This document shows, piece after piece, positions 985 to 63,008 of a stretch of 64,000 nucleotides of DNA. Both the position numbers and the translations under genes were made by a program. The DNA comes from an uncultured Gemmatimonadaceae bacterium (lineage in GTDB: Bacteria; Gemmatimonadota; Gemmatimonadetes; Gemmatimonadales; Gemmatimonadaceae). The notes under the pieces are model-generated. The model was given only the letters and a program-made list of their open reading frames with translations, was not told the origin of the DNA and searched no databases. How positions within the stretch are numbered: position 1 is the stretch's first letter; each line of letters opens with the position of its first letter. The stretch lies in contig CAWHHI010000016.1 in the NCBI GenBank assembly GCA_963829055.1, forward strand, positions 1,182,192-1,246,191. The letters are read 5' to 3'.

Positions 985-1991
985 ATCGGCGTCGCCGGTG
1001 CTCCGCCGCCACGGCGAGCGAACCACGCCGCGCGCGTTTCGCCGGGAGAGCCAACCGTCATGAGGAAGTCGAGCAGCGCATCTGCGAGCTCGGCTCCGGT
1101 CTGGAAGCGCACATCAGCGGGCTTCGCGAGACAGCGCATCACGAGCGCCGACAGCTCGGGCGAAACGCGCGAGTCCACGACCTCGGGCGCAGCGGCCGTC
1201 TCGTGGACGTGCTTGTAGCCCACCGAATACGAATCCGCGCCATCGAATGGCGGGAAACCAAGCAGCATCTCGTACAGCATGACGCCGACGGCGTAGATGT
1301 CGCTGCGGCCGTCCACCATCTTGCCCATCGCCTGCTCCGGCGACATGTAGTGCGGCGTGCCCATCGCCCGGCCCGTTCCCGTTAGGCGCCCGTGAAAGCG
1401 AGCCGTCGCGATCCCGAAGTCCGTGATCAGTGCGTGGCCGTCCTCGTCGAACAGCACGTTGTCCGGCTTCACGTCGCGATGGACGACACCGCGGCGATGC
1501 GCGTAGTCGAGCGCCGTCGCGATCTGTGCGCAGACCGCCGCTGCCGAACCCGCGCCTACCGTCCGCTCCTTCACGAGCACGTCCGCCAGCGACCCGCCAG
1601 CGAGATACGGCATGACGATGAACACGGCTTCGGCCGCTTCGGCGTAGTCGATGATCGTGCAGATGTGCGGGTGCACGAGCTGACTCGCCGACTCCGCCTC
1701 TCGCCGGAAACGCTCGCGCATCTCTTCGTCACGCGCGAGGTGCGTGTGCAGCACCTTGATGACGAGCGGCCGCTCGAGCAATTGATGCTCGGCGTAGTAG
1801 ACGTTCGCCATGCCGCCGCTGCCGAGGCGGCGGATCACGCGGTAGCGGCTCCCCGTTAGGCGCCGGAGTGCGCTCAACTCCTCCTCGGGACGCTCGCGCG
1901 GAGCGTCCGCGATCTCGGGGAGCTCGGTGGTGCATCGCGTGCAGCGCACCGCGCGGGCGCGATTCCAGGTGCCGCAGTCGGGACAGAACAT
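981..1991 (-). CDS. Ser/Thr protein kinase (Hanks type) with N-terminal zinc ribbon, soluble
   Basis: CPDC..CTRC, LGSGGMA, VIKV, HRDVKPDN, DFG, GTPHYMSPEQ. Confidence 0.95.
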   Translation of the reverse strand: MFCPDCGTWNRARAVRCTRCTTELPEIADAPRERPEEELSALRRLTGSRYRVIRRLGSGGMANVYYAEHQLLERPLVIKVLHTHLARDEEMRERFRREAESASQLVHPHICTIIDYAEAAEAVFIVMPYLAGGSLADVLVKERTVGAGSAAAVCAQIATALDYAHRRGVVHRDVKPDNVLFDEDGHALITDFGIATARFHGRLTGTGRAMGTPHYMSPEQAMGKMVDGRSDIYAVGVMLYEMLLGFPPFDGADSYSVGYKHVHETAAAPEVVDSRVSPELSALVMRCLAKPADVRFQTGAELADALLDFLMTVGSPGETRAAWFARRGGGAPATPI

Positions 1992-1992
1992 G

Positions 1993-2637
1993 TCAGGCTC
2001 CGAACTGCATGCGGACGAAATCGTACGGCGGCCAGGGCCCCGTACACTCGAGCTGCATCTCGCGCAGTCGTTTCTGTTCCTCGCGAACGATGTCGTAGAA
2101 TGCGTCCCAGCGCTCGCGCTCGATCAGAAACGACGCGCGCGCGGCCGGCCCGGACTCGCCAGCGTGGTTGTTGATCACGAGCAATGTCACCGCGTGGCGG
2201 CGAAGAACGCGGAAGCTCTCGTTCGCCGCGTTCTCGACGAGATCCGCGTCGATGGCCATCGTCGTCGTGGTGTCCGGCTCGTCGCCGTATGACACGGTCA
2301 CGCGCGCCATGGCGCGATCGGCCACGAACGTGACCGCTTCGATGAGCGTGAAGTAGTGAAGCTCCAGCCAGCGCATCAGCGAGTCACGTCCACGAAACAC
2401 CGAACCGAATGGCGCCGGCACGATCGTCTGTCGCGCGAACGCGCCCTCGACGACGCTCCTGTATTCCGCAATGTGCTGCGGTGACGGCGTCGGAGCGGCG
2501 TAGGGCGACTCGGACACCAGGGCGCCGAGGTCGCGAAAGGCAATGACAGTCGCACCGCGCACCGGAGACGCAGAACCACCGACGTCGAGCGAGATGATCC
2601 CGTACAACTGCAGCGCGCGTTGCTGCGCCGAAGGCAC
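1993..2637 (-). CDS. GvpL/GvpF-family protein
   Basis: LYGII start, IVPAPFGSVF, C-terminal GPWPPYDFV signature. Confidence 0.8.
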   Translation of the reverse strand: MPSAQQRALQLYGIISLDVGGSASPVRGATVIAFRDLGALVSESPYAAPTPSPQHIAEYRSVVEGAFARQTIVPAPFGSVFRGRDSLMRWLELHYFTLIEAVTFVADRAMARVTVSYGDEPDTTTTMAIDADLVENAANESFRVLRRHAVTLLVINNHAGESGPAARASFLIERERWDAFYDIVREEQKRLREMQLECTGPWPPYDFVRMQFGA

Positions 2638-2638
2638 G

Positions 2639-3451: not shown

Positions 3452-3512
3452 GGAAGGGGAAAGTATACGGCAGTGAACCGGGTACTGGGAACCGGGAACG
3501 GAAACCGGACAG

Positions 3513-4440: not shown

Positions 4441-5736
4441 CGTGCTCCACGAAGTCGTCGTGATGCCCACTCGAGCAGGAGCGCCCCGACCGCGAGCAGG
4501 AAAAGAAATCGGGTCGTCCGCGTGCCGTCGCTTGCCGGCGCGACCCGCGTGTCCATCGTCGCCGGCGGACCGAGTGCGTCGATGAGTGACGCGAGCGGCG
4601 TCTCATCGATCACCTCGTCCGCCGCTGGTACGCGCGCGACGAGCGGTGCATACGCGACCGCGGCGGCGAGCCGGGACCACCATTCGCGGTGAGCCGCAGC
4701 CGCCTCATCGCCGCCGGCCATTCTCCAGCGCCATGTCTCGTCGTAGCCGGTCTGCACCACGCGGCCCGCGGTCGACGCGTCGTGCCGCGACGGTCACGGC
4801 GCTCGCTCTCGACTCGAGCACCACGCCATCGCTCACGAGCGACGTCACAGGGAACACTCCAAGTCCCGTCCGCGGCGAGGCGCTCGTCACGCCGCCGGCG
4901 ACGCCCGCGATCCGCCGTCCGACGTCACCGGGAGCGATGGATGACAGGCCTCCAATGCGAGCAGAGGCGCCAGCGAGTATCACGCCGCCACCGTCGTGCG
5001 CGTACCGTGCGATCGCGGTCGCGGAGGACGCGGCAGTGCTGTCGAGCGCGATCACGGCCGAGTAGCGCGCTGTATCGATGGCGCCGAGCGGGCCCTGTGT
5101 GACTTCCACGTTAGGCGCGACTCGCACGCGCGACGCCACGCGCCACCCTCGCTCCTCGAGCGCCGCAATGGTGAACTTCGACTCCCAGCCAGCGGCGCCA
5201 AGCACGAGCAGGGGCTTGAGCGCGATCGAGTCCCGCGCCGCCGTGGCTGCGGTGAACGTCGCGCCCGACGCGCGCACGCTCCCGGCAACCGACGCGAGCT
5301 CCAGCTCCGCGGCGCCTCCGCGAGAGAGTGTGTCGATCGTGCCCGCGGCATCTCCGATCGATACAGGCTCTCCTCCGGCAGCGGCGAACCGCACCCGCGT
5401 CGCGCCGCTCGGTTCTGATGCTGGTTCCGCGATGACGGCCGATCCACGGATCGGTCGCGACGCGGCCCACTGCGCCCGCGAGCCCGAGTGCGCGAGCGCG
5501 CGAATCCAGTCGCGCGTGCGCGCGTCCGGCGCCTTGTCGAGCACCACCCGAAGCTCAGCCGGACCGGCCAGCGTCCAACGCTCGAGCGCACGCGTTAGGT
5601 CGCCCGCTGCAACGCTGACGCCAGCCGCCGTCGGCGGCCGCAGCGCACGCCACAGCAGCACCGCCAGCGCGGCCAGCGCCGTCGCTCGGAGCACCAATTC
5701 GGCGACTCGGCGGACGCGCTCAGCGGGTGAGGGCAT
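4437..5736 (-). CDS. Membrane-anchored hypothetical protein of the MoxR/vWA-type module (frameshift near 4760)
   Basis: N-terminal TM helix, glutamine-amidotransferase-like region (GWESKF, GGGVILAG), TWRWRM, C-terminal LLLEWASRRLRG. Confidence 0.6.
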
Positions 5737-6331
5737 ACACGATCACGTTGACGCCGAACTTCGTGTTGTCGATCGAGAGAAACCGCTTGTTGTCGGGATG
5801 GTAACCCCACTCCGAGCTGTAGTCCTTGTTGCTGTACAGCACCGCGATCCGGTCGCCACGCATGGCGGCGAGCAGGTGCGAGTGGACGAGATTGTCGCCC
5901 CAGCCGTTCAGCTCGTGCGACGTGTTAGGCGGCCCATCGGGGAACTTGAAGAAGGACGAGTACAGCGGGTGCGTATTCGCCAGTTGCGTCAACTTCCCCA
6001 CCGCGCGCCCGAGCTCCTCTACCGCCGTCTTGTGAAACGCGCCGTCGATGTCGTGGTTATGGTCGTCGACGAACAGCATACCCCCGCGGTCCGCGAAGCG
6101 GCGCACGTTCGCGCGCTCGGCTTCGGTGAACCGCACGGGGAGATGGCCGGTCAGATACACGAGCGGGAATCGGAACAGATCATCGCTGGCCAGCGCGACG
6201 ATCGCGCCCGTTGGTGCGACGGGAAGGCTCGTGTACTTCGCGAGCGAATCAATGAGATTGGCCGGCACCAGTGGCGCGCTGTCCCAGTCTCCTGATTCGT
6301 ACTGCCCGGTCGCGAACACGAATTCGCTCAC
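5720..6331 (-). CDS. DUF4159 domain protein
   Basis: FATGQYESGDWD, FPLVYLTGH, GGMLFVDDHNHD, YSNKDYSSEW, FGVNVIVYALT; GTG start overlaps upstream TGA. Confidence 0.8.
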   Translation of the reverse strand: MSEFVFATGQYESGDWDSAPLVPANLIDSLAKYTSLPVAPTGAIVALASDDLFRFPLVYLTGHLPVRFTEAERANVRRFADRGGMLFVDDHNHDIDGAFHKTAVEELGRAVGKLTQLANTHPLYSSFFKFPDGPPNTSHELNGWGDNLVHSHLLAAMRGDRIAVLYSNKDYSSEWGYHPDNKRFLSIDNTKFGVNVIVYALTR

Positions 6332-8487
6332 CACACGCCGCTCCACGCCCCGAGGCGTCCGGCGCCACGCACGGTACCGTCCGCGACGCGTCGCGCGCGC
6401 GCGAGCAGCGTGGTCGCGTCGCGGCCATTGCGCATCGCGTCCAGCGCGTCGGCAATGGCTGCAGCGAGACGCGGGGCTGCGTCCAGCGATTCTACTCGCA
6501 GCAACACCAGGGAGTCGATGGCTGCGGCAGGCGTTCGCGACGCCAGCTCTATCGCCGCGGCCAGTCGCTCGGCGCGTCGCGCAGCGCCGGGATCGACCGG
6601 TTGGCGTGGTACGCGCGTACTCGCGGCGCCTGTCTCCTTGCCCGTTAGGCGGACGCGCGCCAGATCCACCACGACCGTCGGCGCCTTGCCGCGAAGGTAG
6701 ATTCGCTCTGCCTGACGCGCGCGCTGAATGGCTGCCAGTGCGCGTCGCATCGGCGGGAGCGCGCGAGCGGTCTCGCCCTGATCCAGCTCGCGGCTGGCTT
6801 CCCACATCGCGTTGTACGCCTCGAGGAGCGGCCGGTTGATCGCAACGACGGGCGTCTCGTCGCCCTCGAAGTCGAGGATCTCGTCGCCCTTCCCCGTTGC
6901 CGCGCTCGCGGCTCTCAGCAACGCGGCGCGCGCGGAATCGGCCGAGTCCGCAGCCGCGATCTCGCGAGCGGGACGGCCAGCACGAGTCGCCGCACGCCGC
7001 GCAGCGTCGCGAGATGCCGAATCCGCGCGTACCGAGGTATCGGCCGAAGCGGGATCATCGTCCGGATCGCGCCCTTCCTCACCGCTCGGGTTGTTACCAA
7101 GCCGAGCGAAGATGATATCGCCGACACGCTTCCGGAGCCTCGTCTGATCGCGGCCGATGGCACGCGACTCCGACATGAGAGTCTCGCGCGCGAGTGTCGG
7201 GCGACGCCGATCGAGCGCTTCCGTCATCATGATCAGCATGCGCTCGCTGATCATCGACTTGTCGGCTTCCGGCGGAGGCGCGCCTTCCACAGCGATGGAG
7301 TCGTACTCGCCAGCGCGGGCGACCCGCAGCACACGTGTCTCTGACGCACCCACGCCCGGTCCGCTCACGGTGTTGCCGTCACGAGCGACGGCACGGAGGT
7401 GCACCATGTCGCCCGGCTTGAGATTCAGGGCGTCGAGCGCGAGCGAGGCGGCGAGCGTGCCGTTCGCCGCGCCACTGTACTGCCGGGCGCCTAACGTCCC
7501 GGACCGGAACTGAAAGCTCTCGCCCTCCCCAGAGCTCACGATGTACTCGAACGCGCCGCTGGCGAGCCCAATGTCGTCGTGCGTTTCCGCGGACAGCGAC
7601 AGCGCGCCCCTGGCGACACGCATGACCGTATCGCGCGACGGCGCCAGCAGTCGCACGGTCGGAACCGAATCCGCGCGCGGCTCGAGCGCCACGATCCGCT
7701 CGCCGGACGCATGGCGGAATCGTACGAGCGTCGGCCGATCGCCGACCGTGAGCGCGACGCGCCAGCCGGCGCTGGCCGGTTGCACGGCGAGCGTCTGGCC
7801 GCTGACGTCTGCGGTGACGCCGGCGCCCGCCCCGGGCGCATCGAACGTGACGCTGCTCCCGACGAGCGCCACAATGGACGCCGGCGACTCCACGCGCAAA
7901 ACGCGACCTCCCGCATACGCGGGCGCACGCACCGTCGCAGAGAGTCGCGCGAACGGCGACGCTACGTCTCGCGACGCTGTGGACGTGGCCGAGACAGTTC
8001 CGTCTGGTGCGGATGCCGACCGCGCAAAGGCGACACGCTGCGCGAGCAGCAGGGCGCCGAAGGCAGCGACGGTCGCCAACGCAGGCCAGGCAATCGCTCG
8101 GCTAACCGCACGTCGCGTCTCCGCGGTCCACGACACCTGAGCGATCTGTTGCTCGAGCAATGCAGTCGTCGGCGCGCGCTCCGCCGCCGGATCGACGGCC
8201 GTAACGAGCGCGTACTCCAGTCGCGGCACGCGCTCCTCGATCCAGAGCGCGACGCGAGGCACCGTTAGGCGACGCCATGGCATCAGCAACACGACGAGCA
8301 CGATGGCGCCGATCACGGCAGCTGCCAGCCACGGAGCGACCCCATCCACCCGACCAGTGCGCCTGCTGGCAATCGTGGCAAGGGCACCGACCGTCAGCGT
8401 CGTGGCGGTCGCCCACAGCGCAGCACGAGTGGCGATGGCGGTCGCGAGTGCGCGACGCGTTCGAAGCACGCGCTCAAGCGGTCGCAT
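6328..8487 (-). CDS. Large membrane protein, DUF4175-like (MoxR module)
   Basis: N-terminal TM helices, ALWIEERVPRLEYALVT, HDDIGL, LKPGDMVHLRAVARDGN, helical C-terminus. Confidence 0.6.
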   Translation of the reverse strand: MRPLERVLRTRRALATAIATRAALWATATTLTVGALATIASRRTGRVDGVAPWLAAAVIGAIVLVVLLMPWRRLTVPRVALWIEERVPRLEYALVTAVDPAAERAPTTALLEQQIAQVSWTAETRRAVSRAIAWPALATVAAFGALLLAQRVAFARSASAPDGTVSATSTASRDVASPFARLSATVRAPAYAGGRVLRVESPASIVALVGSSVTFDAPGAGAGVTADVSGQTLAVQPASAGWRVALTVGDRPTLVRFRHASGERIVALEPRADSVPTVRLLAPSRDTVMRVARGALSLSAETHDDIGLASGAFEYIVSSGEGESFQFRSGTLGARQYSGAANGTLAASLALDALNLKPGDMVHLRAVARDGNTVSGPGVGASETRVLRVARAGEYDSIAVEGAPPPEADKSMISERMLIMMTEALDRRRPTLARETLMSESRAIGRDQTRLRKRVGDIIFARLGNNPSGEEGRDPDDDPASADTSVRADSASRDAARRAATRAGRPAREIAAADSADSARAALLRAASAATGKGDEILDFEGDETPVVAINRPLLEAYNAMWEASRELDQGETARALPPMRRALAAIQRARQAERIYLRGKAPTVVVDLARVRLTGKETGAASTRVPRQPVDPGAARRAERLAAAIELASRTPAAAIDSLVLLRVESLDAAPRLAAAIADALDAMRNGRDATTLLARARRVADGTVRGAGRLGAWSGVW

Positions 8488-9799
8488 TGGCCTCGGATCC
8501 TCGACGTACGAGCATCTCGGCGACGGCCGCGGCCAGCGCGATCGCCAGCAGCCACGCCGCCAGCCTCGACGCCGGCGGCTCACCCATCACCGCGGCGGTC
8601 GCTTCGGTCGATGCCCGCGCGATCGTTGCGGGAAGCGCCTGCGCAAGCACGCTGTCGGAGGCCGCGACCCACGGCAACGCGCTCGCGCACGGCTCCAGCA
8701 GGCGCGCCGCGAACCGGCGGAATGCCGGTGTGAGCGGCAGATCGCCCGTTGATGACACGGGGACTGCGACGGACCGGATGCAGCCGGTGCCTAACGTGCT
8801 CTCGGTGACCGCCGGCTCGCCGTCACTCCACCGGGCGATGACGCGTCCCGCAGGTGGATTGGTAGCCCGCACCATGGGCGCGACGACCGTGGCGGCTCGA
8901 GCCGCGGCGCGCGACCCTCCGCCCGAGCCAGCGAGGGCAGTCACCGCGAACGCGGTGTCGGGCGGGGTTCGTTTCGCCCACGCGCTAGGCGCTATCGCAG
9001 CAGGCCACAGCACCGTCGCGCGGCCATCGCGCGCCCATGCGCTATCGGCCGCTGTCACCGAGTCGCGAACCACTCGCACGGCGGCACCTGCGCGAACGTC
9101 TCCGATGAGTGCCACGGACACGGCAACGGGGTCGCCGACCGTGGCGCGCACGACGGGGCGCCCGAGCGGGCCTGAGTCGTTAGGCGCCGTGCCGGCGCGC
9201 ACGAGCCGAACGGGCCCGGTCCATGTGCGTCTGATGGCGGCGGTCGCGTCATCGAGCTCGCCCGCCGCGAACGGCGAGACGATCACGATTTCTACCGAAT
9301 CCCGCTCGCGTTCGAGGCGCCGGCCGGAGCGGACTGCACCCACGAGCGCGGCCGATAGCGAGCCTGACGCAGTCGACGCCGCCGCGGCGATGGAGTCCGG
9401 AGTCGGGCCGATGACTTCCCGCGCAGTGGAGTCGAACAGGACCAACGCGTCGCCCGGCCGGAATACAGCGCGCGCGGCCGAAGGAACCTCCGGTCCCACG
9501 CCCGCGAAGCGGGATCGGTCAACGACGACAACTCGTGCGGTCCCACGTCGCTGCGGCACCAACTGCGGTCGAGCGAGCGCGAGACCAACGAGCAGGACGA
9601 TCGCGACGCGCAGCGCGAGCAGCGCAATGTCCGCGGGCCGCACCGCGCGGGACACCATGCGGACTGGCCGCTCCGGTGCGAACCGCGCCGTGGGCAGCGG
9701 GGACTCCGGCGGTCGCCGCCACGCCAACAGGTGCAGGGCGACCGTGCCAAGCGCGACGACGCCGGCGACCCACGCGAAGAACGGAGCGGCGAACGTCAT
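8474..9799 (-). CDS. BatA N-terminal domain protein
   Basis: MTFAAPFFAW...LHLLAWRRP...LLALR...LALARP, then VVVDRS; C-terminal TM. Confidence 0.75.
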   Translation of the reverse strand: MTFAAPFFAWVAGVVALGTVALHLLAWRRPPESPLPTARFAPERPVRMVSRAVRPADIALLALRVAIVLLVGLALARPQLVPQRRGTARVVVVDRSRFAGVGPEVPSAARAVFRPGDALVLFDSTAREVIGPTPDSIAAAASTASGSLSAALVGAVRSGRRLERERDSVEIVIVSPFAAGELDDATAAIRRTWTGPVRLVRAGTAPNDSGPLGRPVVRATVGDPVAVSVALIGDVRAGAAVRVVRDSVTAADSAWARDGRATVLWPAAIAPSAWAKRTPPDTAFAVTALAGSGGGSRAAARAATVVAPMVRATNPPAGRVIARWSDGEPAVTESTLGTGCIRSVAVPVSSTGDLPLTPAFRRFAARLLEPCASALPWVAASDSVLAQALPATIARASTEATAAVMGEPPASRLAAWLLAIALAAAVAEMLVRRGSEANATA

Positions 9800-10732
9800 C
9801 GCGCTTCGCTCCGCGCATTGAGGGCGGCGTCGCGGCCGGCGCCTAACGCCCCACCGGCTACACGCCGCACGACACGCGACGCCGGCTCCGACGTGGTCGC
9901 CATCGTGTACGTCAGTCCTTCCCCTCGCCACGCCGCCGCGAGCTGACTACGCCACTCGCCAAAACGCTCCACGTACGCTGCGCGCGCATCCGCGATGAAT
10001 GGCCGCGCGACCGTCGCGTCCTCCGGATCGATCACGAGCATCGACCGGGTGGGCGGGTTCAGCTCCTCCTCCGCGACGACGTGAATCGCATGCACTTCCC
10101 CGCCCGCGGCCGCGATTTCGCCGGCGCGTCGCCGTATGTCGTCCGCGTCGCCAAGAAAATCGCTGATGACGACGATCCGCATTCGTGCTCGAGTGCGCAC
10201 GACAGCCGAGGCGATCGCCGCGCTCCCTTCGGGAACGGCAGAGTCGAGCGCCCTCGCAATCTCACCGACGATCCCCCGTCGCGTGCGCGGCGGCAATTGC
10301 CGCAGTCCACCACCGCCGACGATCACGAGTCCAACAGGATCGCGACTCGCGTGCGCGACCGCCGCGAGACCGATGGCGATGTCGGACGCCGACTTTCCAC
10401 TTGCCGAGCGTGTCGACAGGGAATGCCATCGACGCCGTCGCATCGACGACGATCAACGTCGACACGATGGAGCGGTCTTCCGCGAGGCGGATGTACGCAC
10501 GATCGCTGCGCGCGAGCAGGCGCCAGTCTATGCGCTTGGGATCGTCACCCTGTCGGTAGACCCGGTACTCACTCAACTCCGGCGCCGACCCGCGAAGTCG
10601 GGAGTGGTGCGCACCTGGCAGCGCGCCGCCGATCGGGCGCAGCGCCGGCCACTTCACGCCGCGAATGGCGTCGAGGAGCGAGCCGCGGGTCTCGATACCC
10701 GGTTTCTCGGCTCCCACCCGTCGTTCGCGCAT
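9796..10732 (-). CDS. DUF58 (vWA-like) protein (frameshift near 10390)
   Basis: GAHHSRLRGSAPELSEYRVYRQGDDPKRIDWR, VDATASM, VVISDF. Confidence 0.85.
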
Positions 10733-10750: not shown

Positions 10751-11812
10751 TTAGACGCGGATTCCGCTCTCCGGAGCCGGCACGTGACGGATGACTGCCG
10801 CCACGATCTGCTCGGCGGTGACTGCGTCAGCGTCGGCAGCGAAGTTGGGCAGCACGCGGTGCCGCAGCACCGGCTGCGCGACCCGCCGTACGTCGTCGGG
10901 CGTGACCGCCGCGCGGCCGGACAGGAGCGCGTGGGCCTTGGCGCCTAACACGAGTGCCTGCCCCGCGCGCGGACCCGCGCCCCAGCGCACGTAGCGCTTC
11001 ACGAGATCGGGCGGTGGCGCGGACGCACCGTTGGTCGCGCCATCCTCGGTTGGCGGACGCGTCGCTCGCGCCAGCGCCGCCGCATATCGCAGGATCGGCT
11101 CGGCCGCCGGCAACTCTCGCGTCAGGCGCTGCAGCGCACTCGTCTGCGCCGCGTCCAGCATGGGCTCGAGCGCGACTTCACTGGCACCCGTGGTGGAGCG
11201 GAGAATGCCGACTTCCTCTTCTTCGTTCGGGTACCCGATGCGAATGTCGAAGAGAAAGCGGTCCAGCTGCGCTTCGGGCAGCGGATACGTTCCTTCCTGC
11301 TCGATCGGGTTCTGCGTCGCGAGCACGAAGAACGGCTCCGGTAGACGCATCGTCTCGCCCGCCGCCGTCACGCGATGCTCCTGCATCGCTTCGAGCAGCG
11401 CGGCCTGCGTGCGTGGTGGCGCGCGGTTGATCTCATCCGCCAACACGATGTTCGCGAACACCGGGCCGCGCACGAACCGGAAGCTGCGAGCGCCCGTGGC
11501 CGCATTCTCCTCGAGCAGCTCGGTGCCCGTGATGTCGCTCGGTACGAGGTCCGGCGTGAACTGAATCCGGCGGAAATCCAGCCGCATCGACTCGGCCACC
11601 GAGCGAACCATCAGCGTCTTGGCGAGACCGGGAACGCCGACGAGCAGCGCATGGCCACCCGCCAGTACCGCCATGAGGATCTCGTCCAGCACCGCGCGTT
11701 GCCCGACGATGCGTCTGCGAGACCTCATCACGCAGGCGGACAGCGGCGGCGAGGAGCGACTCGCGCTCCGCGGCGGATGCGGGCGCGTTAGGCGTGGGCA
11801 GCGTCGTGCTCA
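10751..11812 (-). CDS. moxR: MoxR-family AAA+ ATPase (5' end approximate, frameshift near 11715)
   Basis: GVPGLAKT, RIQFTPDLVPSDITG, LADEINRAPPRTQAALLEAMQE, ATQNPIEQEGTYPLPEAQLDRF. Confidence 0.95.
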
Positions 11813-17395: not shown

Positions 17396-17459
17396 GACAT
17401 CACCGGCCGTACCGATGGGTCGTTAGGCGCGACGCGCGCGCCCAGGCATGGGGTCTCGA

Positions 17460-21568: not shown

Positions 21569-21584
21569 GCGTTAGGCCTAACGC
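21569..21584. repeat. Perfect 16-bp palindrome GCGTTAGGCCTAACGC between convergent genes
   Basis: Read directly; two overlapping inverted copies of the over-represented octamer. Confidence 0.9.
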
Positions 21585-21639
21585 GATGAGAGCTGCCTGA
21601 CGATCATCGACCCTCGTCAGGCCACAAGACGCTCACGGA

Positions 21640-21666
21640 AGATCCCTCGCTACCGCTCGGGATGAC
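21640..21666 (-). repeat. REP-like element GTCATCCCGAGCGGTAGCGAGGGATCT
   Basis: Imperfect hairpin next to the tssK stop; related half-copy GTCATTCCGAGCGGAGCG at 58919-58936. Confidence 0.5.
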
Positions 21667-21671
21667 GCGCA

Positions 21672-41435: not shown

Positions 41436-41437
41436 CG

Positions 41438-46036: not shown

Positions 46037-46241
46037 ATGACTCGCGTGGCGCATGGGCGCGACGTCACGTCGGCCATCGCTCCAGACGCCTTCGGCTGGC
46101 TCGACATGCAGGCGCGCTACGAATGGTGGATGCGCGCCCGCTTCCGTGGCACGTGGGCCGGGTCGCCCATGCAGCTCGAGGTGTTTCCGCAGCGCTGACG
46201 AGCGATGGCGCTCGGTCGCTCGCACGACGTTAGGCGGCGCG

Positions 46242-52416: not shown

Positions 52417-52510
52417 TTTCCCCCAAGCAGCCGACGCCGGGTTCGCGCCTCACTCCGTCGCAATGGCCTAACGTTCGACCGCGCTTGGGGGATTGCTCAG
52501 GGCGATCCCA

Positions 52511-54060: not shown

Positions 54061-56440
54061 GTGACTTTGCCGCCTCTCGAATCCCCCACCGTTCCCGCTG
54101 CGCATTGCACGAGATGCGGGGCACCAGTCTTTTCGGGCGATCGATTCTGCGGTGGCTGCGGCTACAGTCTTACGGTGTGCGCGACCTGCGGCCGCACCGT
54201 GATGCCAGGCGCCGACTCCTGTACGGCGTGCGGCGCTTCCCTCGCGCCGGCGCCGCCGGCTGGTGATCCTGCCGCGCCATCAGCGGGCCCGGCGAGCGAA
54301 GGCGACCCGACCTGGGGGCCCGTCGTCGAGCGGCTTCGCGCTGCGTTCGCGAACGAATTCGAATTCGACGGCGAGCTCGGACGCGGCGGCATGGCTGCCG
54401 TCTTCCGCGCACGCGAGCTCGCGCTGAATCGACGCGTCGCGATCAAGGTCATGGCGCCCGGCCTCCTGCTCGGTGAAGGCATGGTCGATCGATTCCGGCA
54501 GGAAGCAATCACCGTCGCGAACCTCCAGCACTCGAACATCGTCGCCATTCATGGCGTGCGCACGCTCGGCGACCTGCACTTGTTCATCATGCAGTACATC
54601 CCCGGTCGCTCGCTCGATCGGGTGCTGCGCGATCGAGGCACGGTCTCCCTGGAAGCCGCGCGCGTGATCATGTATCACGTCGGGTCCGCGCTCGACTACG
54701 CGCATCGTCGCGGCGTCATCCACCGCGACATCAAGCCTGGCAACATCCTGCTCGACGGCGACGGCGATCCCGTCGTAACGGACTTCGGTATCGCGAAGGT
54801 GGCGGAGACGCCGGGCTACACGCGCGTGGGAACCGTCGTTGGAACGCCGACGTACATGAGCCCCGAGCAGTGCATGGGCTACGACGTCGGCCCCGCCAGC
54901 GATCAGTATGCGCTCGGCATCGTCGCGTTCGAGATGCTGACTGGCAGTCCACCGTTCGGCGGAACCGGCATGGCGATCATGCGCGCGCATACGGACCAGG
55001 CGCCGCCCTCGCTACGAGCAGCGCGCCCGGACATTCCGGAGTCCGTCGACGCCGCGATCGCACGCATGCTCGCGAAGAAGGCGGAAGATCGCTTCCCCGA
55101 TCTGGCGGCCGCGATTCTCGCGCTCGACGCGCACCCACTCAGTGCGCTCGGACCCGTGCGCGCCGAGATGTCGGCGCTGGCCGGCGCCGCGAGCGCCGAG
55201 ACGAACCTCGCTGAAATCGTTAGGGCGCCGCGCAGTCCCGCGCCGCAGAGCCAGACGCCGTTGCCGCCGCCGTCAGGCGACCGCGCAAAGACGATGCGCC
55301 CGGGCGTGGCCGCCATCCGCGTGGACCAGCCGCCTGACGCCGTCGAAGTCGGAGACTGCATCGTGCTGTCCGCGGTGCCGCGCTCGGACACTGGCGGTCG
55401 CGTCGATGGCGCGCGTCTCGTGTGGCGATCGTCGAACGACCTCGTTGCTACCGTCGACTCCGCGGGCGTGCTGACGGCGAATGCACCAGGTTCCGCGACC
55501 GTGACGGTTTCCGCTGGCGACGCTCGCGCTAGCGTCGACGTCGTCGTCGTGGCGCCGAGCGTCGCGACGATCGAGGTCGAGGTACCGACCGAGGTCCGAT
55601 CCGGGACGCGCGCGACGCTCGCCGCCCGCGCGCTCGATCGCCATGGCAAGCCGGTCGACGTTCCCGTGACGTGGAAGTCGCGCAATCCCGCCGTGGCTGC
55701 GGTAACCGATACGGGTGCGTTGTCGGCGCGGCGCCGCGGTACCGCCGTCGTCGTGGCTGAGGTCGCGGGTCTCGCGCGCGCGGTGACGATCACGATCACG
55801 TCCCCCCCGGTGGTCGACGTCGTCGTCGATGGCGTACCGCCGGCACTCGTCGTCGGAGCCACAGCGACGCTGCGCGGCATCGTGCGTACGGCGCGCGCGG
55901 CGGATGACGATCAGGTCCGCGCCGTCGAGTGGAAGTCGAGCGATCCCGCGGTCGCGACCGTATCGAGTGACGGCGTGCTGACCGCGCGCGCGAGCGGCCA
56001 GGCAACCATCACCGCGACTGTGCGAAGGCATTCGCGGGGCCGCTACGGTCACGGTGGTGAGTGTTCGCGCCGCAACGGTGGTCATCGCCGCTCCGCCCTC
56101 ACCACTTCGCCTCGGCGATCGCGTCATGCTCAAGGCGACGGTCTATGACGCGAGCGGGAATGTCGTGTCACGCCCGATAACGTGGCGCTCCACCGATCCG
56201 CGGGTCGCACCGATCGATCAGTCCGGCCAGCTCGTGGCGCAGAACGAAGGCTGGGCGATCGTCACGGCGCAGTCCGACGGCGTCGACGCGCACACCGAAG
56301 TGCTCGTTAGGCAGCAGGTCATCCCGATCTCCGCGAGTGGGCGGCGGGAGTCGCGACGTCTCGCGCTCCACTGGTGGGTGCTGCTCGCGGTCATCGCCGG
56401 CGCGATCGCCCTCGGCTGGAAGCTGCTGCTGCGCCGCTGA
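54061..56440 (+). CDS. Ser/Thr kinase paralog: double Zn ribbon, kinase, Big_2 x4, C-terminal TM (frameshift near 56020)
   Basis: CTRC..CGGC..CATC..CTAC, HRDIKPGN, DFG, WRSS/WKS Big_2 motifs, WWVLLAVIAGAIALGW. Confidence 0.9.
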
Positions 56441-57482: not shown

Positions 57483-58976
57483 ATGCGTCCATTCACAGCC
57501 ATCGCATCGACCGCCATTCTACCGGCCTTCCTGGCCGCCGGCGCCTCGGCACAGACCCCACGTGGGATCCCCAGTCGAGCCGCGGTCACGCACGTCGCGG
57601 ATTCGATCGCCGAGTCCGTAACACGAAACGGAGGGGTCGCTGGGCTGGCTATCGCGGTGCTTCGCGGCAACGACACGCTGGTAATGAAGGGATACGGCTC
57701 GGCCGATCTCGAGAACGATCTGCCTGCGACCGCGCAGACCGTCTACCGCATTGGCTCGGTGACGAAGCAGTTCACGTCCGTCGCCATCATGCAGCTCGTT
57801 CAGCAGGGCAAGCTGTCGCTCGACGACGACGTCACGAAGTACGTGCCGAACGCGCCGACGCACGGGCGACGCATCCTCGTCAGGCATCTGTTGAATCACA
57901 CGTCCGGCATCCCCAGCTACACGGACGTCGGGCCGGAATTCGGCCGGGTCGCTCGGCTCGATCTCTCGCACGATTCGCTGCTCGCGGTTGTCCGTGACGA
58001 CTCGCTGCAGTTCGAGCCAGGATCGCACTTCTACTACAACAACACCGGCTATTACCTGCTCGGCATGGTCATCGAGAAGGTGACGGGCAAGCCGTATGGG
58101 GACTATGTCCGCGACGCGCTGTTCGTGCCAAACGGTCTGACGTCCACGGTGTACTGCTCCGTTGGACCGACTCATCAAGCGGCGAGCACGCGGCTACGAT
58201 CGCGGACGCAATGGACTCGTCAACGCGGACTATATCGGCATGGACCTGCCGTTCGCGGCAGGTTCGCTCTGCTCGACCGTCGGCGACCTCGCGGCGTGGA
58301 CGCGTCTCCTCCACAGCGGGAAGCTCGTGAACGCGTCCTCGTTCGCGACCATGACCACACCCGTCAAGCTGACGAGCGGACGACCCATGTCCTACGGCTT
58401 CGGACTCTCGGTCGACACGCTGGGCACGCACCGCCGAATCCATCACGGCGGCGGCATCAACGGCTTCATCTCGGAGCTGGCGTACTACCCTAACGATTCG
58501 CTCACGGTCGTCGTGCTCGCGAACACGTCGCCGGCGCCGTCGGACCAGATCGCCGAAAACATCGCGCGCGTTCGCGTTCGGCATGCCGTTCCGCGACGGC
58601 GCCGCCGCGCCCGGCCGATCTCCCGATCGCCGCCGACGAGGCGAAGCGGCTCGCCGGGAACTATCGAGATCACGTTGCCCGATGGCTCGAGGCGAGCCGG
58701 CGACCGTCACCGCCAACGGCGAGCAGCTCATGCTGCAGATCGAAGGCCAGCCGGCAGTGCGCCTGATGAAGCAGTCCGCGCCTAACACGTTCGCGCGCGA
58801 TGGGCCAGCCGGGCCGTATCATGTTCGACGTCGCGAACGGAAGCGTGGTCGGCTTCGTGATCGACCGCGGCGCGCGACCGCTCGAGGCGGTGCGCGTACC
58901 GTACGCATCCGAGCGGTCGTCATTCCGAGCGGAGCGCTGCGGCGCGCGGGTGCCTCGGACGCACGACGAATCGTGA
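57483..58976 (+). CDS. Serine hydrolase, beta-lactamase class C/PBP family (frameshifts; end approximate)
   Basis: Signal peptide, IGSVTKQF, LLNHTSG, YNN, HGGGING. Confidence 0.88.
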
Positions 58977-58999
58977 TGCCCTGGGACTCGACGGGTGCG

Positions 59000-60527
59000 T
59001 TAGGCCGACAGCCCGGCCTCGATCGCCTTGATGACCGGATCGAACGACAAGCGGCGGCGCACCGACCCGCGCCGCCAACTCCGACGCGAGCTCGCGCTGC
59101 CCTTCGCCGAACAGCTCGCGCACCATCCACGGCCCGGCGCTCGGGTTCCGGTACCAGTCCTCATCGAACTGCGCGACGAGCACCTCGCGGAGTGCCGCCT
59201 GCAGCTGCCACGCGCGGAGATAGCGGGCCGAGTAGAACCGCGGGTCGACGTCCACGAACGCATCGGCCGTCCGGTACCGGAACGTTCGTCGCCGAGCTCA
59301 GGACTGTCGACGTACGCGTCGGGCAGCGACGACCACGAGTCGCCGCCGCCGTACAGCCGCAGCTCGTACAGCAGCTTCGCCGAGTAGCGCCGCAGGAACT
59401 GCAGCTCCTCGAACGCGGCCGCTCGCCGATACTCCGCCACCCGCGGCCTGCCTAACGCGGAGTACCGGAGCAGCCACCCGCTGTCGTGCAGCAGGTGGTC
59501 GAACAGCATCGCGTACCCTTCGGTGATCGAGTTGTCGCCGAGCCAGCGGAACTCGAACGGCAGGTCGTCACGCATGTACCCGAAGTGCAGCGCATGCCCC
59601 AGCTCGTGCAGCAGCGTGCGATAGTCCGTCGCGCCGCCGTGCGGCAGCAGCACGAGGTACACCTCGCGCGGGATGCGCACGGGCGCGCAGAACGCGCGCG
59701 ATCGCTTCCCGGGACGCGGCGCGAGATCGTAGATGATGCGCCCGTTCGCGTCACGGCTCGATGCCCATCGCCGTCACCTGCCGCCGCACCGCTGGCTCCA
59801 TGTCGCGCTGCCGGGAAAGTACGGATCGAACCGCGGCGCACGCATGAGCGCGAGTGCGTCGGCACGCGTCGCCTCGCCGGGCTTGATACCGAGTTGACGC
59901 CGAACGGCGTCGCCATGCACGTCCGCCCACATCGACTCCGTCTCGCGCAGAAACCGCTCGCATTCGCGCCGCCAGCGCGCGTAGGTCGATCCCGGACAGC
60001 GCCTCGAAGCTCGCGATGTAGTCGGGCGCGATCTCCAGCGATTCGATCAGGTCGCGCTCGCGCTGCAGCCGCTCGGCGCGCATGCGGCGCGAGCTCGCGT
60101 TCCACGAGCGCCGCACGCGCCTCGTCGAGCGCGAGACGTTCGTCGCGGTCCGTCTCAGTCGCCATGTCGACGGCCGCGCGCTGATACGGCACCTCGCGCC
60201 CGTCGGCCAGTCGGATCACGGCGGTCGCCTCCCACGCGATCAGCCGCTCGTCGAGCTCGACCAGCTGCGCGAGGCGTAGGATTCGACCTCCCAGTCGAGC
60301 AGCGCGCGCGCGGACCGCCAGTCTTCGCTGTCCGGCGCCGTCGTGCGAAACGCGTCGCGCGTGAGCTCGAGCGCGCCCGGCCCGAGCACGTGCGCGAACC
60401 GATCGTAGATCGGCCGCAGATCGGCGTTAGGCTTGTGTCCCGCCAGCGCGAGGTGCTGCTCGCGCGACAGGGCTTCCATGAACGCCTCGCCGTCTCGGCG
60501 AAGCGCGGCGAGCGTGAGGTCGGCCAT
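59000..60527 (-). CDS. M3-like oligoendopeptidase (frameshifted)
   Basis: LLHELGHALH zinc motif, ITEGYAMLF. Confidence 0.75.
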
Positions 60528-60546
60528 GCGTATTGCCCGATCGAGG

Positions 60547-61913
60547 CTACACGGTCGGGCCGATTCGTTCGCTGATGTAGCCGCGAAGCTGGTCGGCGGC
60601 GACGCGCACCTGCTGGAGCGTGTCGCGGTCGCGAACCGTGACCGTGCCGTCCTGCGTGGACTGGCCGTCGATCGTGATGCCGAACGGCGTGCCGACCTCG
60701 TCCTGACGGCGGTACCGGCGGCCGATCGCGCCGCCGTCGTCGTAGAAGACGGCGAACGACTTGCCGCAGATCATCCGCGACGCGACGTCGCCATCTCCGG
60801 CATGCCGTCCTTCTTCACGAGCGGGAAGACGCCGGCCTTGATCGGCGCGAGCGCGGGCGCGAGGCCGAGCACCGTCCGGCCCTCGCTCTCGCCCGGCACT
60901 TCCTCCTCGCGGTACGCGTTCACGAGCACCGCCAGCGTCGTGCGATCGGCGCCGACCGACGTCTCGATCACGAACGGAACGAAGCGCCGGTTGTTCGGCT
61001 GGTCGAAGTACTCGAGCTTCTTGCCCGAGTACTCCTGATGCGCGTCCGAGGTCGAAGTCGCGCGCGGTTGTGAACGCCTTCGATCTCCTGGAAGCCTAAC
61101 GAGCCGCCGAAGTCGAACTGGATGTCGAAGGCCGCGCGCGCGTAGTGCGCGAGCTTGCTTCGTGCTGCTTGTAGCGCAGCCGCTCCGGCGCGAGGCCGAG
61201 CGCGCGATGCCACTCCATGCGCTGCGCCTTCCAGTACTCGAAGTACTCCTCGTCCGTGCCCGGCTCGACGAAGAACTGCATCTCCATCTGCTCGAACTCG
61301 CGCGTGCGGAAGATGAAGTTCCCGGGCGTGATCTCGTTGCGGAACGCCTTGCCGATCTGCGCGATGCCGAACGGGATCTTCTGCCGCGTCGACTGCTGGA
61401 CGTTCAGGAAGTTCACGTAGATGCCCTGCGCCGTTTCCGGACGCAGGTACACGATGGACGCGCTCTCCTCCACCGGCCCCATGAACGTCTTGAACATGAG
61501 GTTGAACATGCCGCGGCTCGCTCAGCGTGCCCTTCGCATCCGCACACGGGACACTGCGCGTCGGGCGCGCCGGGCGTGCCCTTGATGGCCGGATCGTCCG
61601 CGCGAAAGCGGCGCTTGCAGTTCCGGCAGTCGACGAGCGGATCGGTGAACCCGGCGACGTGGCCGCTCGCCTCCCACACGCGCGGATGCATGAGGATCGC
61701 CGCGTCGAGCCCCTCGATGTCGTCGCGCGCGCGCACCATCGCGTGCCACCAGCGGTCCTTGACGTTCTTCTTCAGCTCGACGCCGAGCGGACCGTAGTCC
61801 CACACGGACCCGGTGCCTCCGTAGATCTCGGAGGACTGGAAGATGAATCCGCGTCGCTTCGCGAGCGACACGAGCTTCTCCATGACATCGGGATGTGCAG
61901 ACACGCTAGCCAT
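60547..61913 (-). CDS. glyQS: Glycyl-tRNA synthetase, homodimeric type (frameshifted)
   Basis: [66 protein letters not shown]. Confidence 0.96.
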
Positions 61914-61985
61914 GACCGGGCCGAAGGGCGCGAGGTTGGTTGGGCGGAGCGGGCGAACCCGAAATGTAACCGTCCCATTCCGCGC

Positions 61986-63008
61986 TCACGAATCCAGATC
62001 CCGGCTGATCTTCGCCGGCGGCGGCGCCGGCTCGACCCAGCACGCGCGCCACGATCTGATCGCCGTGAAAGCGGCCGTTCTCGATGAACACCTTGTTCGC
62101 GTCGTAGCCCGCGCACGACCACGCCGGCGATGAACACGCCCGGGCACGTTCGTCTCGAGCGTCTGCGGGATCGTGCGACGGAATGCCCGTCGTCGGGTCG
62201 ATCGTCACGCCCATGCCTGCCGCAGCAGATCCACGCTCGGCGCGAAGCCCGTCATCAGGAACACGTGGTCCGCCGGAATCGTCGAGACGGCAGCCGTCCG
62301 TCGACGCGAAGCGTGACGTTCTCCGCCCCGATCTCCGTCACCCGACTGTTCCACACGCGCCGCGATGCTCCCCTCGGCCACGCGATTCGTGAAGTCCGGC
62401 AAGCACCCACGGCTTGATCTTCTTGTCGAACGTCGGGCCGAAATGCACGAGCGTCACGCGCGCGCCTGCGCGCCACAGATCGAGCGCCGCTTCGGCCGCG
62501 GAGTTGCCGCCGCCCACGACCACCGCGTTCTGCTGGAACGCGTAGTGCCCTTCGCGATAGGCGTGCGTGACGTGCGGGAGATCCTCGCCGGGAACGCCGA
62601 GTCGGTTCGGCGATCCCCAGTAGCCCGGTCGCGATGACGACCGCGCGCGCGTCGGTCTCGCGCTCGACTCCGCGACGCGTCGTGCGCACGACGAACGCGC
62701 CGTCGCGCCCGTCGATGCGCGACACGCGCTCGTACTGCCGCACCGGAATCTCGAAGTACCGGACGACCGCGCGGTAGTACGCGAGCGCGTCACGCCGCGA
62801 TGGCTTCTCGCCCGGCGTGACGAACGGCAGCCCGCCTAACGACAGCTTCTCCGCCGTCGAAAAGAACGTCGCGTACGTCGGGATACTGCGTGATGGAGCT
62901 GACGACGCACTCGGCGTCGAACACGAGCGCGTCGAGCCCGGCGCGCCGCGCCGAGATCGCCGCCGCGAGCCCGCACGGCCCGGCGCCGACGATCGCGACG
63001 TCGATCAC
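61986..63008 (-). CDS. ypdA: YpdA-family FAD/NADPH disulfide reductase (frameshifted)
   Basis: [51 protein letters not shown]. Confidence 0.8.

Follow-up and report, generated by a model that had tools for sequence, protein, structure and literature searches.

The octamer CGTTAGGC, together with its opposite-strand form GCCTAACG, is a genome-wide DNA signal that is maintained at the DNA level in the genome studied here, that of a soil bacterium of the Gemmatimonadales (G000; G001, G027, G304 and similar labels denote the genomes of relatives). In the window, the whole stretch of 64,000 nucleotides that was analysed, an exact-word scan of both strands found exactly 23 copies of CGTTAGGC and 16 of GCCTAACG, reproducing the 39 octamers of the initial annotation with every coordinate it quoted. 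The roughly 12 more GTTAGG-core sites that it mentioned number 12 (GTTAGG/CCTAAC), giving 51 sites in total, and its GC content of about 69% is corrected to 67.2%. Markov models of order 2 and order 3 predict 0.62 and 2.09 octamers in the window, respectively, against the 39 observed. Genome-wide, 2,547 + 2,457 = 5,004 copies were counted in 7.78 Mb, or about one per 1.5 kb, an excess of 49-fold over the order-2 model and 19-fold over the order-3 model. The octamer is the top-ranked word of the genome at lengths 6–10 and is present on 20 of 20 contigs at 4.8–8.0 per 10 kb. Its consensus is YGTTA(G>T)GY, mostly CGTTAGGC, and the information content around the sites is confined to these eight bases. 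A literature search found no paper on the octamer. The sites in the window, with positions from the exact-word scan and frames from predicted genes, are as follows.

1380..1387, +, octamer, Ser/Thr kinase gene 981-1991 (-), CTA-Leu frame R-L-T
1854..1861, +, octamer, Ser/Thr kinase gene 981-1991 (-), R-L-T frame
5109..5116, +, octamer, predicted gene 4705-5694 (-), P-N frame
5593..5600, +, variant CGTTAGGT
5923..5930, +, variant TGTTAGGC
6643..6650, +, octamer, predicted gene 6328-8316 (-), R-L-T frame
7489..7496, -, octamer, predicted gene 6328-8316 (-), TTA-Leu-Gly frame
8263..8270, +, octamer, predicted gene 6328-8316 (-), R-L-T frame
8789..8796, -, octamer, predicted gene 8474-9799 (-), T-L-G frame
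9178..9185, +, octamer, predicted gene 8474-9799 (-), P-N frame
9841..9848, -, octamer, predicted gene 9796-10182 (-), A-L-G frame
10943..10950, -, variant TGTTAGGC
11786..11793, +, octamer, intergenic or frame ambiguous
15190..15197, +, octamer, tssM (13961-17395, -), P-N frame
15685..15692, +, variant CGTTAGGT, tssM
17099..17106, -, octamer, tssM (13961-17395, -), A-L-G frame
17421..17428, +, octamer, tssM/tssL gap
21570..21577, +, octamer, left half of a 14-bp palindrome, converging ORFs either side
21576..21583, -, octamer, right half of the same palindrome
24103..24110, -, octamer, frameshifted region, frame ambiguous
24857..24864, +, octamer, gene junction or frame ambiguous
26719..26726, +, octamer, tssB (26268-26786, +), T-L-G frame
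30406..30413, +, octamer, tssA (29589-31388, +), A-L-G frame
31033..31040, +, octamer, tssA (29589-31388, +), A-L-G frame
32540..32547, -, octamer, tssF region with indels, S-L-T frame in the gene model used
33166..33173, -, octamer, TAA stop (GCC TAA CG) of ORF ending 33171
36026..36033, +, octamer, tssH/clpV piece, A-L-G frame
36509..36516, +, octamer, predicted gene 36484-36756 (+), T-L-G frame
38910..38917, -, variant CGTTAGGG, vgrG
40169..40176, -, variant TGTTAGGT
41430..41437, -, octamer, weakly predicted gene 41033-41683 (+), S-L-T frame
41572..41579, +, variant CGTTAGGG
41812..41819, -, variant TGTTAGGC
42021..42028, -, octamer, intergenic or frame ambiguous
44433..44440, +, octamer, 3-oxoacyl-ACP synthase-like gene (+), A-L-G frame
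46228..46235, +, octamer, intergenic or frame ambiguous
46352..46359, +, octamer, weakly predicted gene 46242-46553 (-), P-N frame
48218..48225, +, octamer, Ser/Thr kinase gene 47419-50427 (+), S-L-G frame
49905..49912, -, octamer, Ser/Thr kinase gene 47419-50427 (+), P-N frame
50552..50559, -, octamer, start of predicted gene 50548-52416 (+), R-L-T frame
52262..52269, +, variant TGTTAGGC
52466..52473, -, octamer, gap of converging ORFs
55218..55225, +, variant CGTTAGGG, kinase gene 54061-56148
56305..56312, +, octamer, predicted gene 56126-56440 (+), V-R (AGG) frame
58488..58495, -, variant CGTTAGGG
58780..58787, -, variant TGTTAGGC
58998..59005, +, octamer, TAA stop of ORF 59000-59680 (-)
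59450..59457, -, octamer, ORF 59000-59680 (-), A-L-G frame
60425..60432, +, octamer, predicted gene 60240-60527 (-), P-N frame
61094..61101, -, octamer, TAG stop of glycine-tRNA ligase piece (61096-61509, -)
62834..62841, -, octamer, weakly predicted gene 62790-63008 (-), V-R frame

Palindromic pairs like that at 21570..21583 are rare, with 2 at that distance genome-wide.

The 4,891 confidently predicted genes contain 2,889 octamers, whereas synonymous resampling expects 83–93 and a context-aware null, with the word's own codons excluded from the codon table, expects 29. The excess over amino-acid-preserving nulls is thus 30–100-fold, so a codon-preserving shuffle does not remove it. The octamer is read in all four stop-free frames and within stop codons, and is written with rare codons against the genome's own codon habits, 1,726 of 2,425 TTA codons lying within GTTAGG. 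Retention was examined in 288 gene pairs between G000 and G001/2/4/5, in which four-fold sites are about 50% identical. The octamer is retained at 110 of 220 sites; TTA is retained in 90 of 130 cases (69%) inside the word versus 4 of 59 (7%) elsewhere, CTA in 40 of 75 versus 2 of 143, and CCT in 36 of 63 versus 54 of 453. The codon-null excess and this conservation at synonymous sites support the proposal of the initial annotation that selection, or drive, acts on the DNA word itself. An alignment gap lies near only 1 of the 220 sites, indicating an origin without indels, and octamer sites pair gap-free with homologous codons of word-poor relatives. With GC3 as a proxy for recent gene acquisition, genes of low GC3 (up to ~0.72) have a density of 2.4 per 10 kb and typical genes one of 6.5–7.7. 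YGTTAGGY also becomes sparser with conservation, from 8.6 per 10 kb among the genes conserved least to 4.2–5.3 among those conserved most, albeit on small counts. In two accurate assemblies the octamer is about twice as dense outside genes as inside.

Neighbouring octamers avoid each other. Relative to expectation, pair density is 0.17–0.25 below 100 bp, 0.5 at 150–200 bp, 0.75 at 200–300 bp and 1.0 beyond 500–700 bp, a depletion over ~300–500 bp that is equal for same- and opposite-facing copies, while CGCTCGGC, CGTTCGGC and CGTCAGGC, taken as controls, lack this hole. Among relatives, a high octamer density is found in scattered genera of Gemmatimonadales. Rich and poor genomes can share a genus, and most relatives, one of them a congener of two rich genomes, do without the word. 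The cultured species Gemmatirosa kalamazoonensis is also rich in it, with 137 copies counted in 200 kb of its plasmids, and megaplasmids and prophages carry it too. Four tailed phages carry 26–43 octamers each (7.7–10.5 per 10 kb); three are visibly temperate from integrase/repressor or Mu-type transposition genes, and the fourth is incomplete. An integrated 15-kb integrase/primase element in G304 has 17 octamers in 20 kb, its host 242 in 400 kb. Second variants differ between lineages: CGTTATGC occurs 583 times in G000, 708 in G014, 315 in G036 and 13 in G240, and CGTTAGAC 164 times in G240, 213 in G297 and 24 in G000.

The reading we favour, at about even odds, is that the word serves, like DUS and USS, as an uptake tag that accumulated through sequence-biased transformation. 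In this model the competence machinery includes a putative DNA receptor with a sequence preference, which would bias uptake toward word-bearing fragments. Over many rounds of transformation with DNA from kin, point mutations that create the word would then spread at positions where the encoded protein can accommodate them. On a short fragment that already has one copy, another would add little, which could leave the 300–500 bp hole, and the receptor preference may have begun as, or converged on, the integron cassette-end core. The comparison was made with Pasteurellaceae USS and Neisseriaceae DUS as presented in the available parts of PMC2817400, PMC2397512, PMC7811141 and PMC6776037. Like these, the octamer belongs to the non-palindromic words of 8–10 bp that occur on both strands about once per 1–1.5 kb in strong genome-wide excess, coding DNA included, and that arise in coding frames by point mutation and are conserved beyond protein constraint. 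Further likenesses are its thinning in conserved genes (small counts) and in atypical genes (by the GC3 proxy), its presence in temperate phages, its lineage variants, and host genes, as genes alone, for ComEC, ComEA-type proteins, DprA and type IV pilins. In the accessible text of the respective sources, thinning of the same sort by gene class is published for USS/DUS (PMC2817400), USS accumulate in temperate phages and not in likely-lytic ones (PMC6776037), and uptake by H. influenzae is not raised by two close USS (PMC7811141). The system differs in its phylum, its unrelated sequence, its strong short-range avoidance, its spelling as an integron core and its patchy occurrence among members of one family or even of a single genus; biased uptake is here presumed.

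Profile matches, which attest gene presence only, placed ComEC and a ComEA-type HhH protein in 5 of 5 genomes each and DprA in 60 of 63, with type IV pilins also present; the family of ComP, the sequence-specific pilin receptor of DUS/USS systems (with ComN as a predicted counterpart), was above cut-off in 0 of 5. A FimT-like pilin with a GRxR end is found in 25 of 28 word-rich genomes, but 29 of 30 word-poor relatives also have a FimT-like pilin, and DprA likewise occurs in them, and these shared competence genes count against the uptake tag. No column of the FimT alignment splits rich from poor genomes (the best is R in 13/21 vs 2/26), and no reader protein was found among the FimT-like, ComP and integrase-like candidates compared. 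A literature search found no report of natural competence in the phylum Gemmatimonadota. Four more points weigh against this reading: uptake alone is insufficient to explain the identity with the attC core; inverted terminator pairs, common for DUS/USS, are nearly absent (3 convergent pairs <30 bp apart among 5,004 sites); the G304 element is as word-dense as its host, whereas genomic islands are frequently DUS-poor in the part of PMC7371117 available; and the hole of 300–500 bp contrasts with Neisseria conversion tracts of 0.6–1.7 kb (PMC2397512, available text). All distribution features equally fit any site with a locally saturating benefit.

The main alternative, itself tentative, places the reader inside the cell: IntI, or another protein of integron-integrase-type specificity binding the double-stranded R-box, would make bound sites locally advantageous, by protecting resident or incoming DNA or by favouring recombination of incoming strands, so that any resident replicon gains the word. 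The initial annotation had equated the octamer with the attC core consensus GTTRRRY; at this core, integron gene cassettes are cut. Real attC sites of Gemmatimonadales, an order in which integrons are common, match it letter for letter: the R' end reads as the octamer both in word-rich G304 and, at most of ~24 sites, in word-poor G027. The enriched variants GTTAGGT, GTTATGC and GTTAGAC also recur in attC-like sites here, yet GTTAGAC, common in G304 attC sites, is unenriched across the G304 and G000 genomes. IntI is present in word-rich genomes, and the tyrosine recombinases of G240 and G297 are XerC, XerD and IntI only; phages and the integrated element match or exceed host density. However, 24 of 41 relatives, including many word-poor ones, have an IntI above cut-off, G293 has an intact IntI and only 66 octamers, and no extra integrase-like paralogue specific to word-rich genomes was found. 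The best IntI of G000 also lacks the usual Lys and His that we take to be catalytic. An attC site has paired R''/R' boxes 55–140 bp apart, a hairpin and a position downstream of a cassette gene; true attC pairs were seen at the C20 integron, whereas the octamers are single boxes inside genes, lacking L box, partner or hairpin; GCCTAACG..CGTTAGGC pairs within 200 bp number only 46 genome-wide, and there are no insertion scars. According to the available parts of the sources, Vibrio IntI acts on single strands arriving by transformation (PMC12614218), but the genomic targets of IntI (attG) need only GWT (bioRxiv 2022.09.11.507474). A combined scenario, which we regard as unlikely, is that several Gemmatimonadales lineages fish cassette DNA from soil with a receptor tuned to the cassette-end core, or with an integrase as reader, and that biased recombination stamped the core into chromosomes, megaplasmids and temperate phages as a by-product.

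It is improbable that the octamer is bound by a nucleoid protein that organises the chromosome and needs evenly spread sites on each replicon, a role proposed for HIP1 in the accessible part of PMC5861425. Even coverage of all contigs, orientation-blind avoidance and occurrence on megaplasmids and prophages fit such a protein; against it stand the lack of long-range periodicity on three contigs (5-kb bins, by eye), of 10–11 bp phasing and of any clear origin/terminus restriction in 20 samples from a closed chromosome, the majority of relatives living without the word, and the attC match, which it leaves unexplained.

We assign still less probability to a HIP1-like process in which the word is marked by a methyltransferase or some other modifier, and repair directed by that mark makes and preserves copies. 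Cyanobacterial HIP1 (GCGATCGC) is likewise a hyper-abundant octamer conserved beyond codon constraint (PMC5861425, PMC4390886, PMC13756078), with similar silent-site conservation (PMC5861425) and a published repair model (PMC4390886), as far as the available text of these papers goes. Such repair could also yield local avoidance. HIP1 is palindromic, however, whereas CGTTAGGC differs from its own reverse complement, and the long-range periodicity of HIP1 was not seen on the three contigs binned. In the single published methylome, that of G. kalamazoonensis, the SMRT motifs are only RGATCY, ATGCAC and CCAGN7TCA (PMC3974934), without the word. C5 methyltransferase is absent from 5 of 5 word-rich genomes, and G000 (86% complete) gave no PF01555 or PF02384 match in a search that left out the D12 class. 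Although m5C is poorly detected by SMRT, methylation is unlikely as the basis of the word. Among the functions first suggested, the likeness to uptake sequences and HIP1 stands, methylation-linked HIP1 is disfavoured and the Chi/KOPS-like option fails.

Chi and KOPS are over-represented non-palindromic octamers of coding DNA with strong replication orientation. The word shares all but the last, and a polar replication or repair signal of this type is largely refuted and very improbable: on contig C16 a slight leading-strand excess (368 vs 297, 55%, p = 0.007) falls between the values for control words (53% and 65%), against 85–90% for KOPS-type words and 78% leading for coding, and opposite-facing copies shun each other as strongly as same-facing ones. 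Equally improbable are cassette insertion/excision scars, dispersed repeats, codon or peptide bias, or sequencing artefact, suggested by the attC identity, the ability of cassettes to insert across genomes (available part of bioRxiv 2022.09.11.507474) and indel errors in the assembly; they are refuted by the gap-free orthologous alignments, and information ending at eight bases and the use of four peptide frames plus stop codons also speak against them. The basecalling artefact feared at first is opposed by six congeneric assemblies with 2,501–5,112 octamers each, many at orthologous positions, and by a finished named genome of equal density; contigs from four public runs (four studies, library types unrecorded) spanning the T6SS region of the window offer a partial test, in which 0 of 40 listed differences, with 572 more outside the list, hit a copy.

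To our knowledge, HIP1 is unexplained after three decades. Here, the word occurs in an abundant soil phylum, in some members of a genus and not in others, varies by lineage and is found in a cultured type strain, so that the origin of tags of this sort becomes directly testable, in terms of drive versus selection and gain versus loss. The available text of PMC7811141 describes sequence-specific DNA uptake in only two bacterial families; if true, the reading by an integron-core receptor or integrase would mean a third uptake-tag system of independent evolutionary origin, and the first one connected with integrons. The word can serve as a marker for binning, chimeric-contig detection and phage-to-host assignment, and may aid transformation of a genetically intractable group. 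That the word is identical to the integron core suggests a previously unrecognised link of cassette capture to genome-wide sequence evolution.

The octamer CGTTAGGC and its other strand, GCCTAACG, occur 23 and 16 times in the window, with 12 further sites sharing the GTTAGG core, exactly as tallied in the initial annotation. Its claim of an excess over chance was upheld, as Markov models predict 0.6–2.1 copies there. The source genome (G000; 7.78 Mb, 20 contigs, 86% complete) contains 5,004 octamers, 2,547 forward and 2,457 reverse, with some on every contig, which is 49 times the order-2 and 19 times the order-3 Markov expectation. Its RecA is 84–90% identical to Gemmatimonadaceae and Gemmatimonadales records, placing the organism in Gemmatimonadales. 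Reading frames were assigned with our own hexamer model, and because the assembly has indel errors, part of the coding DNA is tallied as non-coding. The proposed selection on the DNA word survived a codon-preserving shuffle: 2,889 coding copies were observed versus 83–93 after synonymous resampling, and 29 are expected once the codon table omits the word's own codons. All four stop-free frames are used.

Octamer copies by frame in the 4,891 confident genes of G000
x-Leu(TTA)-Gly: 1,188 copies
Pro-Asn: 793 copies
x-Leu(CTA)-Thr: 530 copies
Val-Arg(AGG): 378 copies

In the same genes, 1,726 of the 2,425 TTA codons lie inside GTTAGG, and the octamer makes 294 of 5,036 stop codons in G000. The information in the site is confined to its 8 bases, the flanking positions showing codon periodicity. 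Scoring 24 one-base variants for enrichment in G000 gave the consensus YGTTA(G>T)GY.

Enrichment of one-base variants in G000
CGTTAGGT: 112-fold
TGTTAGGC: 54-fold
CGTTATGC: 13-fold
CGTTAGGG: 13-fold
CGTTAGGA: 11-fold
AGTTAGGC: 9-fold
GGTTAGGC: 5-fold
CGTCAGGC: 2.7-fold, slight

The remaining variants were not enriched in G000, CGTTAGAC standing at 0.4-fold. Second variants are lineage-specific: CGTTATGC is raised in genus g1 and in the compared genomes G014, G193/G292, G036, G040 and G324 and not in G240, G297 or G304, while G240 and G297 are enriched in CGTTAGAC. Position 146418 of contig C11 carries a compact inverted pair, GCATAAC-N4-GTTAGGC, whose pattern matches nowhere else in the genome. 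A REP-like intergenic repeat family distinct from the octamer (core GTCATTCCGAGCG, 686 copies genome-wide) is present in the window at 58919 and about 21620–21670.

To measure conservation, G000 was aligned with four congeners over 288 non-independent gene pairs totalling 86,337 codons, with 81–85% amino acid identity and ~50% identity at four-fold sites. The octamer was retained at 110 of 220 sites, and synonymous control words at 18/104, 4/28, 0/10, 6/42 and 16/52. Where the amino acid was conserved, TTA was retained at 90/130 positions within the word versus 4/59 elsewhere, CTA at 40/75 versus 2/143, and AGG at 32/52 versus 54/273. Only 1 of the 220 octamer sites is close to an alignment gap. 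This retention, with gaps so rare, indicates that substitution creates the copies and that they are maintained at the level of DNA; the word spreads by point mutation wherever proteins permit. In the alignments listed, the same columns hold ordinary codons in word-poor relatives, and a site is sometimes common to G000 and distant word-rich genomes. Recent decay in the word-poor G293 was rejected, as just 1 of 14 orthologous sites is one mismatch away (20 gene pairs, 68% identity).

Octamers avoid one another at short range. Gaps below 200 bp number 215 in G000 versus 611 expected, and pair density relative to expectation is 0.17–0.25 below 100 bp, 0.50 at 150–200 bp, 0.75 at 200–300 bp, 0.87 at 300–500 bp and 1.0 thereafter. 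The depletion is absent for three abundant control words and identical for direct, convergent and divergent pairs. The octamer also repels TGTTAGGC, CGTTAGGT, CGTTAGGG and CGTTATGC, which therefore behave as the same site. The word is a cis-acting, orientation-blind DNA site whose benefit levels off within a few hundred bases. Inverted pairs are rare in G000, and neither helical phasing nor a long-range period was found. Rare-codon pairing was rejected as an explanation: depletion extends to Pro-Asn/Pro-Asn pairs (4/13 below 100 bp) and to pairs whose members lie in separate genes (6/13, 17/27 and 81/101 for 100–500 bp), although both sets of counts are small and TTA-TTA pairs are back to normal by 100–200 bp. 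This comparison leaves aside the non-coding pair classes, which are confounded by frameshifted genes.

A dif-like site at position 560791 of contig C16 lies at the maximum of cumulative GC skew and likely marks the replication terminus. When C16 is split there, the leading-strand share of the octamer is 55%, whereas control words gave 53% and 65% and KOPS-type words 85–90%; these shares and the orientation-blind depletion contradict the Chi/KOPS-like signal suggested at first. Twenty samples of the closed G304 chromosome gave 113 forward and 129 reverse copies. A reading as a XerC/D half-site was dropped because the dif-like site does not contain the word.

The octamer occurs 2.4 times per 10 kb in low-GC3 genes versus 6.5–7.7 times in typical genes; its density drops as protein conservation rises, and is about twice as high outside genes in two accurate assemblies. 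Both 16S genes of G000 lack the octamer, which is weak evidence. Long word-free stretches at contig ends (C6:5440–55037, C6:591808–623330 and C11:1–46789) carry housekeeping genes (chorismate and DAHP synthase, phosphoglucomutase, isocitrate lyase, GreA) and are probably chimeric joins with DNA of another organism. Within the window, positions 13961–39118 hold a type VI secretion cluster (tssM, tssL, two tssK, tssB, tssC, tssA, tssE, tssF, tssG, tssH and vgrG). Several of its genes look split; the breaks are probably assembly errors, because, judged against public contigs, one base is missing at each of 25157, 32747 and 32897.

At least 400 copies are found in 12 of 41 relatives, including all seven members of the genus, and in 13 of 301 genomes of a phylum sample (family 10/71; one sister family 3/125, a single genus; outside the order 0/102). 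G013 and G390 enter the tallies as word-poor rows only. G240 and G297 hold ~4,000 copies each, and their congener G293 only 66. A tree of the FimT-like pilin, one short gene with 47 rows from which the frameshifted G000 copy was omitted, requires 9 changes of the rich/poor label, at least 4 of them forced by strong branches. No other dialect word comparable to the positive control was found in 15–111 kb samples of 11 word-poor genomes. Among 46 named genomes, one, a Gemmatimonadaceae MAG, is word-rich, and 137 copies were counted in 200 kb sampled from the two large plasmids of the type strain Gemmatirosa kalamazoonensis KBS708. None of 301 genomes in a Verrucomicrobiota-phylum sample is dense in the word; only G422 shows a moderate, strand-balanced excess (148/151; 9 versus 0.7 expected in 71 kb). 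Strongly one-sided counts (e.g. 168/6) in G531, G430, G659, G402 and G635 may reflect large integron arrays built on this core.

The match to the integron attC core noted initially holds: from the attC sequences in G027 and G304, the genome-wide word is spelled exactly like the attC end seen most often in this order. Word-poor relatives have few copies, many of which share a strand and are spaced ~550 bp apart; in G027 these are attC sites of the form GCCTAAC...CGTTAGGC, 90–136 bp long. G304 holds an attC array whose ends are both GTTAGGC and GTTAGAC. The G000 integron is located on contig C20, where attC-bearing cassettes follow an IntI-like gene on the same strand, and contig C4 has only a truncated IntI piece. 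IntI-like proteins without the usual catalytic Lys and His are encoded at L012:9509–10486 (C20) and at locus L190 of G293. In 24 of 41 relatives the integrase IntI exceeds its family threshold, irrespective of word count, and it is intact in word-rich and word-poor genomes alike; no rich-specific paralogue was found. Genomic IntI targets are reported to require only GWT (bioRxiv 2022.09.11.507474), and no partner box was found at genomic octamers in G000.

Among the candidates examined for a protein recognising the word, no gene separates word-rich from word-poor genomes. IntI occurs in both, and stand-alone IntI N-terminal domains, other tyrosine recombinases, pilin sets, DprA, and FimT-like pilin sequences with their neighbours (21–22 rich, 26 poor genomes) do not discriminate. 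Methyltransferases were rejected as well (PF01555 in 2/5 genomes, PF02384 in 4/5 with none in G000, PF00145 in 0/5); none of five word-rich genomes yielded a C5 methyltransferase, and two adenine/N4 families had no match in G000. The SMRT methylome of KBS708 contains RGATCY, ATGCAC and CCAGN7TCA only (PMC3974934). Competence genes are encoded (ComEC 5/5, ComEA-type HhH 5/5, DprA 60/63, type IV pilins), and the GspH/FimT-like pilin ends in GRxR, described as the DNA-binding motif of Legionella FimT (PMC8897410).

Three IMG/VR scans, each seeking two copies at defined spacings, returned 37, at least 122, and 37 stretches, most of them chance pairs or one-strand arrays; flanks were retrieved for 80 loci from the second scan. 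In four tailed phages the word is spread along the full length, in either orientation and inside structural genes too, with similar variant spectra; their density is biased upward because they were chosen by the same search. Host searches yielded no assignment for these phages.

Word-dense tailed phages
G668: 26 copies in 25.5 kb; Mu-type transposition genes
G669: 35 copies in 45.6 kb; 100% complete; integrase and repressor
G670: 43 copies in 41 kb; integrase and repressor
G671: 26 copies in 28.6 kb; incomplete

An integrase/primase element integrated in G304 carries the word 17 times in 20 kb. In G670 (locus L271), many copies fall at gene junctions in a stop-then-start arrangement (GCC TAA CG ATG, coding strand). 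One-strand runs of 9–12 copies over 4–8 kb in phage contigs (L303, L315, L316, L337, L339, L433 and others) look like phage-borne integron-type cassette arrays. Phage G672 (L258, 46% GC; near-copies L265, L270, L279) has eight copies in 32 kb versus fewer than one expected, two of the eight having been selected by the search, and encodes a DNA methyltransferase.

The word behaves like the uptake tags of Neisseriaceae (DUS) and Pasteurellaceae (USS), but we do not assign it to them, as their defining function, biased uptake, is a proposal here and their typical terminator pairs are missing in G000. On the overall pattern, we give an uptake tag an even chance of explaining the word. Against it, the competence genes examined do not separate rich from poor genomes, ComP has no match above the cut-off, the short-range depletion does not reach as far as known conversion tracts, and identity with attC requires an extra step. 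An intracellular protein with integrase-type specificity would account for that identity and for the dense mobile elements, yet it leaves the absence of the word from most IntI-bearing relatives unexplained, and we consider it a tentative second choice. In Pasteurellaceae, USS are reported to accumulate in temperate phages and not in likely-lytic ones (PMC6776037); the word-dense phages therefore fit an uptake tag, but they fit an intracellular reader too. A nucleoid site is unlikely, and modification-directed repair more doubtful still. Identity with HIP1, attC, Chi or KOPS failed in the tests run here. A Chi/KOPS role is barely credible, and so is a scar or artefact.

No description of the word was found in the literature searched, which covers few subscription journals. 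Returning to the uptake tag, uptake would be biased in favour of word-bearing DNA and would be followed by homologous recombination, which together are presented as the one established process yielding the whole pattern (PMC2817400, PMC2397512, PMC7811141).
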